The translations under genes were made by a program, and so were the position numbers. The notes beneath the pieces are model-generated. The model was not told the origin of the DNA. It searched no databases and saw only the letters and a program-made list of their open reading frames with translations. Positions 31,371-31,415 of a DNA stretch of 64,000 bases are shown one piece after another. How positions within the stretch are numbered: position 1 is the stretch's first letter; every line of letters begins with the position of its first letter. This DNA is from Runella aurantiaca (lineage in GTDB: Bacteria; Bacteroidota; Bacteroidia; Cytophagales; Spirosomataceae): positions 184,471 to 248,470 of the forward strand of contig NZ_QPIW01000003.1 of NCBI RefSeq assembly GCF_003339505.1. Direction: 5' to 3'.

Positions 31371-31415
31371 ATTTTTATGTAAATTTAAAATTCAATTTTA
31401 AATTTACATAAAAAT
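31371..31415. promoter_or_regulatory. 45-bp perfect AT-rich palindrome (22-bp arms) between the SPFH gene stop and the ATPase gene start
   Basis: atttttatgtaaatttaaaatt-c-aattttaaatttacataaaaat. Positioned 7 bp upstream of the ATPase ATG. Candidate operator or weak terminator. Confidence 0.5.

Follow-up and report, generated by a model that had tools for sequence, protein, structure and literature searches.

Operators of toxin-antitoxin and restriction-modification C-protein systems are dyad sites that lie over the promoter of a potentially toxic defense gene and travel with that gene. Iteron plasmids with Rep proteins such as pPS10 RepA, F RepE and R6K pi combine direct iterons with an inverted-repeat operator at the rep promoter. 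In two further systems, the DnaA boxes at the dnaA promoter and the ORB elements by the orc1 gene of archaeal Orc1/Cdc6, repeated or inverted elements lie directly upstream of the gene for the AAA+ protein that recognizes them. Here we compare with these systems a palindrome from a stretch of 64,000 nucleotides of Runella aurantiaca (contig NZ_QPIW01000003.1, positions 184,471 to 248,470; this whole stretch is hereafter the window). The palindrome is located between a gene for an SPFH/Band_7 protein and a gene for an ATPase-nuclease with AAA_14 and DUF4143 domains. We favor, with slightly better than even confidence, the explanation that it is a double-stranded DNA operator over the promoter of the ATPase gene, probably bound by the ATPase itself.

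DUF4143 has been classed as a PD-(D/E)XK domain (PMC3424549). The gene matches PDC-S01 of PADLOC, an abundant single-gene defense candidate without experimental validation, which two surveys describe as one of the most abundant 'defence' annotations in prokaryotes, fourth in frequency overall and ahead of every other locus in rumen genomes (PMC12988326, PMC13356809). The searchable literature, which omits most subscription journals, yielded no description of a cis-element for DUF4143, COG1373, PF13635/PF13173 or PDC-S01 genes. An operator is ordinary in principle; this one is notable because a very abundant, uncharacterized defense-candidate family seems to carry it as a conserved hallmark.

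The palindrome

Positions 31369-31417 form a perfect 49-bp palindrome, with two arms of 24 nt (31369-31392 and 31394-31417, 100% complementary) around a single central nucleotide at 31393. An earlier note on this DNA had described a perfect AT-rich palindrome of 45 bp, with 22-bp arms, upstream of the ATPase-nuclease gene and after the SPFH stop. The sequence is as described there, but its extent was underestimated, as both arms remain complementary for another 2 nt outward. Read along the minus strand, the palindrome starts 33 nt past the SPFH stop and ends 4 nt ahead of the ATPase ATG (6 nt for the 45-bp version). It is the longest inverted repeat of the window; by chance, about 4e-9 palindromes of this kind would be expected per window, or about 5e-6 even at 80% A+T.

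The element is built from a 14-bp half-site, TGTAAATTTAAAAT, present as two inverted copies with 3 bp between them. The features are:

31369..31417, no strand assigned: proposed operator, the 49-bp palindrome (arm complementarity, conservation in orthologs)
31395..31408, minus (sense) strand: promoter-distal half-site TGTAAATTTAAAAT (direct-repeat matrix, tied top match in the window)
31378..31391, plus strand: promoter-proximal half-site TGTAAATTTAAAAT, inverted copy (direct-repeat matrix, tied top match in the window)

The 24-mer arm has no second match in the window at up to 3 mismatches (shuffles with a match, 0/100), and no other copy was found elsewhere in the related loci. Within the sequence covered, we therefore rejected an interspersed repeat of the REP/MITE type, the generic repeat against which the earlier note had advised a search for further copies.

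Orthologous loci

Orthologs with 60-96% identity to the ATPase carry the core TATG(T/C)AAATTTAAA in both arms across gene contexts. The gene upstream of the palindrome varies among them, and may encode SPFH, the RNA ligase Rnl, an asparaginase, an NADH dehydrogenase subunit or a divergent ParE/antitoxin pair. The loci compared (designated by L numbers) include:

L001, 96% identity: synteny as in the window; palindrome identical save for the center base
L002, 85% identity: WYL-SPFH segment absent, divergent ParE/antitoxin pair upstream; proximal arm intact, distal arm degraded
L003 and L097/L098 (Arcicella), 70-72% identity: gene order Rnl, palindrome, ATPase, RlaP, polynucleotide kinase-phosphatase (PNKP); TTTATGTATATTTAAA / TTTAAATATACATAAA, abutting the ATG
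L099/L100, 67% identity: lone gene after an asparaginase gene; 28-nt arms
L101 (Fibrella aquatilis), 65% identity: lone gene after an asparaginase gene; 27-nt arms
L102 and L103, 60-65% identity: unrelated contexts; imperfect palindromes

Alignment of seven ortholog upstream regions reveals an invariant core (TT.TGTA..T.TAAA ... TTTAAAT.TACA.AA), with flanks that lack conservation and cannot be aligned. L001 differs from the window by 6 substitutions over the 36 nt that precede the palindrome and by 0 over the 48 arm positions. Where the arms do change, they change symmetrically (A to T in both arms of L003 and L097, A to G in both arms of L101). The palindrome touches or overlaps the start codon in L003, L097, L099 and L101. 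Thus, the comparative genomics of the intergenic region that the earlier note had proposed returned strong conservation.

The center base on the sense strand is G in the window (31393) and C in L001 (5969). This G-to-C change is the sole trace that inversion of the whole palindrome would leave, and could equally be a G/C transversion.

Loci without a gene for a WYL regulator within 5-6 kb still carry the element (L002, L099-L104 and the plasmid homologs). The case of L002 is the most direct, as the whole WYL-SPFH segment is gone from an otherwise syntenic region and the element is retained. Judged from these sequence comparisons, the palindrome belongs to the ATPase-nuclease gene and not to the SPFH or WYL genes.

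A ParE toxin/antitoxin pair (L001 2547-3064; L002 5360-5877) is encoded between the DHDPS gene and WYL in L001, or between the DHDPS gene and the ATPase in L002, which is without the whole segment of WYL, YrlA-like match and SPFH. The pair is absent from the corresponding place in the window.

Palindromes and direct-repeat arrays across the family

The family set comprised about 97 homolog loci among the matches listed, at about 50% identity, from metagenomes and genomes with GC contents of 31-64%; a single-protein search of genome contigs gave 11 loci at about 50% identity. Start codons of the metagenomic loci were taken from tblastn matches and are possibly some codons off in places, and the control open reading frames (ORFs) come from a crude call that took the first ATG and a minimum of 150 aa. 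Of the 78 testable homolog loci among the matches listed, 35 (45%) have a palindrome with a score of 9 or more no further than 120 nt from the start codon, versus 14 of 199 other ORFs of the same loci (7%; Fisher p = 2.5e-12), and 0.9% of shuffles reach this threshold. The dyad-centered palindromes share one geometry, about 31-35 bp overall. Their outer half-sites resemble (T)G(G/T)(A/C)CAAATT / AATTTG..C(A), with the ATGTAAATTT...AAATTTACAT of the window in register.

In a separate protein clade (26 of the 97 loci among the matches listed, 27%), tandem direct repeats take the place of the palindrome. The 3-14 copies have a period of exactly 22 or 23 bp, lie at -380 to -38, are all on the strand of the gene, and are essentially absent from the remainder of each locus. 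The repeat unit contains TG(T/C)AA(A/T)TT(T/C/G)AAA(A/G)T. A weight matrix built from 16 direct-repeat units only (consensus TGTAATTTCAAAGT) ranks the two palindrome arms first and second (tied) in the whole window, with 15.4 of a possible 20.4. The palindrome arms and the direct repeats are thus equivalent. Upstream of palindrome-type homologs outside its training set, the matrix scores at least 10 in 27% of cases, versus 4% (Mann-Whitney p = 3.6e-14). The regions upstream of the ATPase genes also show a 5- to 12-fold enrichment of 7-mers, among them TGTAATT, TTGACAA and GTAAATT.

The nearest protein neighbor falls in the same cis-class for 52 of the 97 loci among the matches listed (permutation mean 33, p = 0.0015), and none of their nearest-neighbor pairs joins a palindrome with an array. 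The architecture is thus inherited along with the protein clade. Both architectures occur in one locus in only 4 of these 97 cases. Plasmid homologs extend the pattern: in one from Emticicia (54%), an imperfect palindrome with the same half-site abuts the ATG; one from Moraxella bovis (33% identity, Gammaproteobacteria) has perfect arms of its own, 21 nt long and 5 nt away from the ATG; and one from Agrobacterium has two CCGrATTGGACG boxes 22 bp apart.

Two loci have additional repeats. In L091 (Chryseobacterium koreense), four repeat units precede the ATPase gene and three more (7200-7262; ATGTrGATTGAAaAA...) are located just past its stop, before a fumarase gene, so that arrays of the same orientation flank the gene. 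L053 (2977-6917) encodes three AAA_14/DUF4143 paralogs side by side, with an unrelated, partly palindromic REP-like repeat (GCCCGTTGCGCAGGAT) scattered between them. An argument from paralog-specific repeats in this locus was dropped, as the upstream region of the third paralog is dominated by the unrelated GCCCGTTGCGCAGGAT.

Predicted promoter elements

Bacteroidota sigmaA promoters carry TAnnTTTG at -12 to -5 (PMC9723704) and TTTG near -33 (PMC7366714). Two elements of this kind are predicted in the palindrome:

31380..31387, minus strand: predicted -7-like box TAAATTTA, inside the proximal arm (7/8 match to the sigmaA consensus TAnnTTTG)
31407..31410, minus strand: predicted -33-like element TATG, inside the distal arm (3/4 match to TTTG)

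By motif matching on the sense strand, the window thus has TATG, a 19-nt spacer and then TAAATTTA. These boxes would place the transcription start near 31375, with a leader of about 11 nt, and the palindrome would then span about -42 to +7. Bacteroidota-like relatives (for example, L033, L045 and L038) have an exact TAAATTTG in the proximal arm, with TTTG 19 nt upstream in the distal arm, and TAAATTTA of the window aligns with the exact TAAATTTG boxes in the same arm. At higher-GC loci, TTGACA is found in the proximal arm, with CATAAT or TACAAT 16-17 nt downstream. The sole asymmetric position of these higher-GC palindromes is the one that makes TTGACA on the proximal side only. For Moraxella, the pattern that overlaps the palindrome is TTGACT-17-TAAGAT. 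A sigma-70 scan of the window was uninformative for a Bacteroidota genome. From these matches we infer that the palindrome probably overlaps the ATPase gene's own weak sigmaA-type promoter.

Recognition as DNA or folding as RNA

As RNA, the palindrome would form a stable hairpin (-25.7 kcal/mol, z = -8.2). The earlier note had considered it too AT-rich for a stable terminator; the supposed instability does not hold, whereas the judgment that it is no terminator does. The element resembles a Rho-independent terminator in being a stable stem-loop after the stop of a co-directional gene. It differs in that only 2 of 24 stem pairs are G:C and the tail (CCCUUAUG) has no U tract, and a terminator scan of the window did not call it. 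We ruled out a terminator of this type on these two differences and on the conservation of the element where no gene reads in. A curated RNA family was likewise rejected, as Rfam gave only generic hairpin (miRNA-precursor) matches on the palindrome, at 18-38 bits versus thresholds of 60-211, all below the gathering score.

The ortholog alignment shows a core that is conserved as sequence and not merely as pairing. Mismatches inside 42 family palindromes are 8 of the G:T type, 6 of the A:C type and 35 of other types, which gives no wobble bias. Palindromes with scores of 9 or more are as frequent next to a divergent (43%) as next to a co-directional (49%) upstream gene, and the direct repeats of the same half-site in the sister clade cannot fold into a hairpin. 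Together, the conserved core, the use of direct repeats, the lack of a wobble bias and the palindromes next to divergent genes argue for a recognition site in double-stranded DNA.

The ATPase-nuclease and its neighborhood

The genes around the palindrome are:

33155-34186, plus strand: WYL/WCX regulator
31451-32611, minus strand: SPFH/Band_7 protein
30210-31364, minus strand: AAA_14 and DUF4143 (PD-(D/E)xK) ATPase-nuclease, PADLOC candidate PDC-S01; proposed owner and candidate binder of the palindrome
29107-30177, minus strand: T4 Rnl1-like RNA ligase (the true start is probably an ATG near 30144 rather than 30177)
28222-29103, minus strand: PNKP

The ATPase (384 aa) is 100% identical to a Runella aurantiaca protein and matches Pfam AAA_14 (E 7e-29), DUF4143 (E 2.5e-45) and PADLOC PDLC04790 (PDC-S01; E = 9e-97). 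The Walker A motif GPRQSGKT, D317 and E330-x-K332 are invariant in 70 sequences, as are R247, K250 and K253 of the wing segment NFNKRLIKSPK. Look-ups of the ATPase and SPFH proteins by exact sequence gave no record, and gene contexts were taken from homologs. A search of PDB sequences found no relative. The AlphaFold2 model is confident (pLDDT 92.5, pTM 0.91) and has a P-loop domain, a helical lid, a winged helix (residues ~200-258; helices 207-214 and 218-230, strands 234-239 and 253-256) and a C-terminal PD-(D/E)xK domain. The structural neighbors of the model are STAND NTPases (CED-4, NLRs, Avs5, Apaf-1), NB-ARC, MalT, Orc1/Cdc6, DnaA, RuvB and TnsC, and those of its C-terminal domain are Can2/Card1-type nucleases. 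This modeled layout (Orc1/Cdc6-, DnaA-, MalT- and STAND-like, with an invariant basic wing) fits a DNA-binding, oligomerizing ATPase.

The PDC-S01 ATPase is encoded in an RNA-repair gene set with the T4 Rnl1-like ligase, PNKP and, at some loci, an RlaP nucleotidyltransferase (window 28222-31364, minus strand; L003 4937-9180; L097 3913-8203). This setting is seen in Runella, Arcicella and a third lineage, with varying gene order; the orthologs of L099-L104 are lone genes. In the 540-bp intergenic region between WYL and SPFH, positions 32862-32953 (minus strand) match the Y RNA-like Rfam model YrlA (RF02553) over its full length, with 42.1 bits (E = 6e-8), below the gathering score of 69; ARAGORN found no tRNA there. 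In combination with the genes for the Rnl1-like ligase and PNKP, the match points to an RNA-repair cluster that is associated with WYL and includes a Y-like RNA.

The spacer between the ATPase and Rnl genes contains a second perfect inverted repeat (30155-30169 / 30187-30201; 15-nt arms and a 17-nt loop, AGACTTGCCAAGTTT...AAACTTGGCAAGTCT), which keeps its arms in L001 with a variable loop. Further perfect inverted repeats of the window are found at 52191-52234 (18-nt arms), 21222-21261 (16-nt arms), 34227-34264 (14-nt arms) and 28180-28214 (12-nt arms). The last two are in terminator-like positions, between the convergent WYL and DHDPS genes and after the PNKP stop, respectively.

Proposed function and alternatives

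The ATPase gene is the only one common to all palindrome and array loci examined, which makes its product the most parsimonious binder; PADLOC likewise treats PDC-S01 as a single-gene system. We infer from the position of the element that a protein on the palindrome would occlude RNA polymerase and keep the potentially toxic nuclease low. If this protein is the ATPase, binding to its own operator would amount to autorepression. Transcripts that read through from the SPFH gene would contain both arms and could form a 24-bp hairpin beside the start codon, leading to a block of translation or to a substrate for RNase III. Transcripts from the gene's own promoter would start inside the proximal arm and form no hairpin. 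The proposal of the earlier note, an operator for a dimeric regulator, gains comparative support from half-sites kept across contexts, the promoter-like overlap and the direct repeats of the sister clade; binding itself is a prediction from sequence.

Several observations weigh against an operator bound by the ATPase. The window's promoter boxes match their consensus imperfectly (7/8 and 3/4). A winged helix like that of the model is also the standard structural winged-helix domain of STAND NTPases, and so is no proof of DNA binding. In about 30% of the homolog loci among the matches listed, no palindrome or array passes the threshold, although several of these loci carry weaker palindromes of this type. 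Long arms (12 nt or more) are enriched with a co-directional upstream gene (13/45 versus 1/23, p = 0.015). In L099 and L101, the outer arms vary in sequence from one ortholog to the other, yet remain complementary and reach the start codon. Neither the long arms nor this complementarity would be needed by a pure operator. The ATPase-associated 14-mer (TGTAAWTTNAAART) also occurs as exact tandem pairs, spaced 22-23 bp, in 18 IMG/VR stretches, where they are intergenic and represent about four independent families of putative phage contigs (L106-L123; for example, L110 1306-1342, L106 6122-6158 and L115 5818-5854). No ATPase-family ORF was found in these 18 stretches. The viral pairs may have arisen by chance in AT-rich, repeat-prone phage intergenic DNA, may serve another binder, or may be phage sites that the ATPases recognize, and may leave room for a different trans factor.

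Such a factor could be a host regulator, or a phage-encoded regulator that switches the defense gene on (a 'phage-sensing promoter'). We regard this as unlikely, although the viral families without an ATPase homolog would fit it, as would a winged helix with a purely structural role. Against it, the element accompanies the ATPase gene in loci of 31-64% GC and in different phyla (Bacteroidota, Gammaproteobacteria) that have no other gene of these loci in common, and half-site variants track the ATPase clade; the viral matches have two copies each and are possibly chance tandem duplications in AT-rich DNA. A primarily RNA-level function, in which a hairpin on SPFH-ATPase read-through transcripts acts as a terminator without a U tract, an RNase III site or an occluder of the start codon, seems improbable to us. 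The stable hairpin that ends 4 nt from the ATG, the start codons reached by the palindrome in four orthologs, the covarying outer arms and the long arms downstream of co-directional genes are all points in its favor, and in L002, where the upstream gene is divergent and nothing reads in, the distal arm has decayed. It is opposed by the conservation of the core beyond pairing, the reuse of the half-site as direct repeats, the palindromes that are as common with divergent upstream genes, the lack of a G:U preference among mismatches, the two G:C pairs without a U tract, and the sub-threshold Rfam matches. Template-switch homogenization ('quasipalindrome correction') is a neutral route to matching arms. 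The outer-arm complementarity and the long-arm enrichment thus point either to an added hairpin constraint or to homogenization of this kind. A second, RNA-level role for the unusually long perfect arms is plausible, and is best seen as a secondary layer rather than as the conserved function.

WYL proteins are commonly dimeric DNA-binding regulators, and the earlier note had named the nearby one as a possible binder. An operator of this WYL/WCX regulator would tie the ATPase to a WYL-controlled RNA-repair cluster, and the WYL gene is indeed 1.7 kb away in the window, and one is near the ATPase also in L001 and L097, with a WCX fragment in L003. We nevertheless consider it very unlikely, and the assignment did not survive comparison: the palindrome is kept without a WYL gene nearby, the matrix finds no half-site in the WYL gene's own 540-bp upstream region (32612-33154), and across about 100 loci among the matches listed the element correlates with the ATPase family. 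To structural or mobile DNA (a REP/MITE-like repeat, a site at which a mobile ATPase cassette recombines or inserts, or an iteron/ORB-like mini origin) we give only the slimmest chance. The variable contexts of the ATPase gene, the center base that differs from L001 as inversion would yield, the iteron-like 22-23-bp phasing of the arrays and the extra copies just downstream of the gene in L091 could be read in this way. However, the window element is a single copy, the ATPase gene has no matching repeat on its 3' side and no linked genes for a transposase, an integrase or replication, and the position of the element relative to the start codon and the promoter boxes is fixed.

An operator bound by the ATPase could also be part of a larger function, though we hold this extension to be quite improbable. 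PDC-S01 ATPase-nucleases may be sequence-specific, repeat-sensing STAND/Orc-like proteins that dock at their own promoter, recognize phased phage repeats, oligomerize with ATP and activate the PD-(D/E)xK nuclease. The suggestion comes from the tandem copies of the identical 14-mer in several viral contigs. Docking at the promoter would then be an autorepressed, sequestered resting state, with the same winged-helix specificity used for phage repeats, and the cis-element would be both the switch and the readout of each paralog's target specificity.

The preferred explanation, an operator at the ATPase gene's own promoter, has several practical consequences. A cis-element that accompanies PDC-S01 across phyla provides a concrete, testable handle on what the protein binds, and is a likely explanation for how a potentially toxic nuclease is held in check. 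The type of half-site and its inverted or phased direct layout could be used to classify paralogs from genomes, and perhaps to predict DNA specificity. In annotation, the palindrome should neither be assigned to the WYL regulator nor called a terminator.

Comparison with known systems

The palindrome is not a member of the iteron-Rep, DnaA-box, Orc1-ORB, toxin-antitoxin or C-protein families, as it has neither a Rep or initiator context nor a dedicated small regulator. The logic of toxin-antitoxin and C-protein systems is tight negative feedback, and we propose the same for the palindrome. Those systems use a small, dedicated helix-turn-helix or ribbon-helix-helix binder and sites of about 12-20 bp, whereas a separate regulator gene is missing here, the protein proposed to bind has 384 aa and AAA+/winged-helix/PD-(D/E)xK domains, and the element is 31-49 bp long. 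A further difference is that the sister clade swaps the palindrome for 3-14 direct repeats.

DnaA and Orc1/Cdc6 are AAA+ proteins with a C-terminal DNA-binding domain, and both are among the structural neighbors of the ATPase model. STAND factors of the MalT type share with the ATPase a nucleotide-binding domain, a helical domain and a winged helix, and act at a cooperative array of short promoter boxes; the target of the ATPase would likewise be such an array, with its boxes direct or inverted. MalT differs in having a separate LuxR-type helix-turn-helix and in activating other operons; the ATPase is without such a domain and the sites are at its own gene.

Compared with the iteron and ORB arrays, the window has an inverted pair only, and phased direct arrays exist in its relatives. 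The differences from the iteron Rep systems are that replication function and plasmid context are not evident here, that the two arrangements are split between clades, and that the protein is an AAA+ ATPase-nuclease and not a Rep. As in those systems, one half-site is used both as direct repeats of about 22 bp and as an inverted repeat that overlaps a (here predicted) promoter, and the candidate binder has a winged helix.

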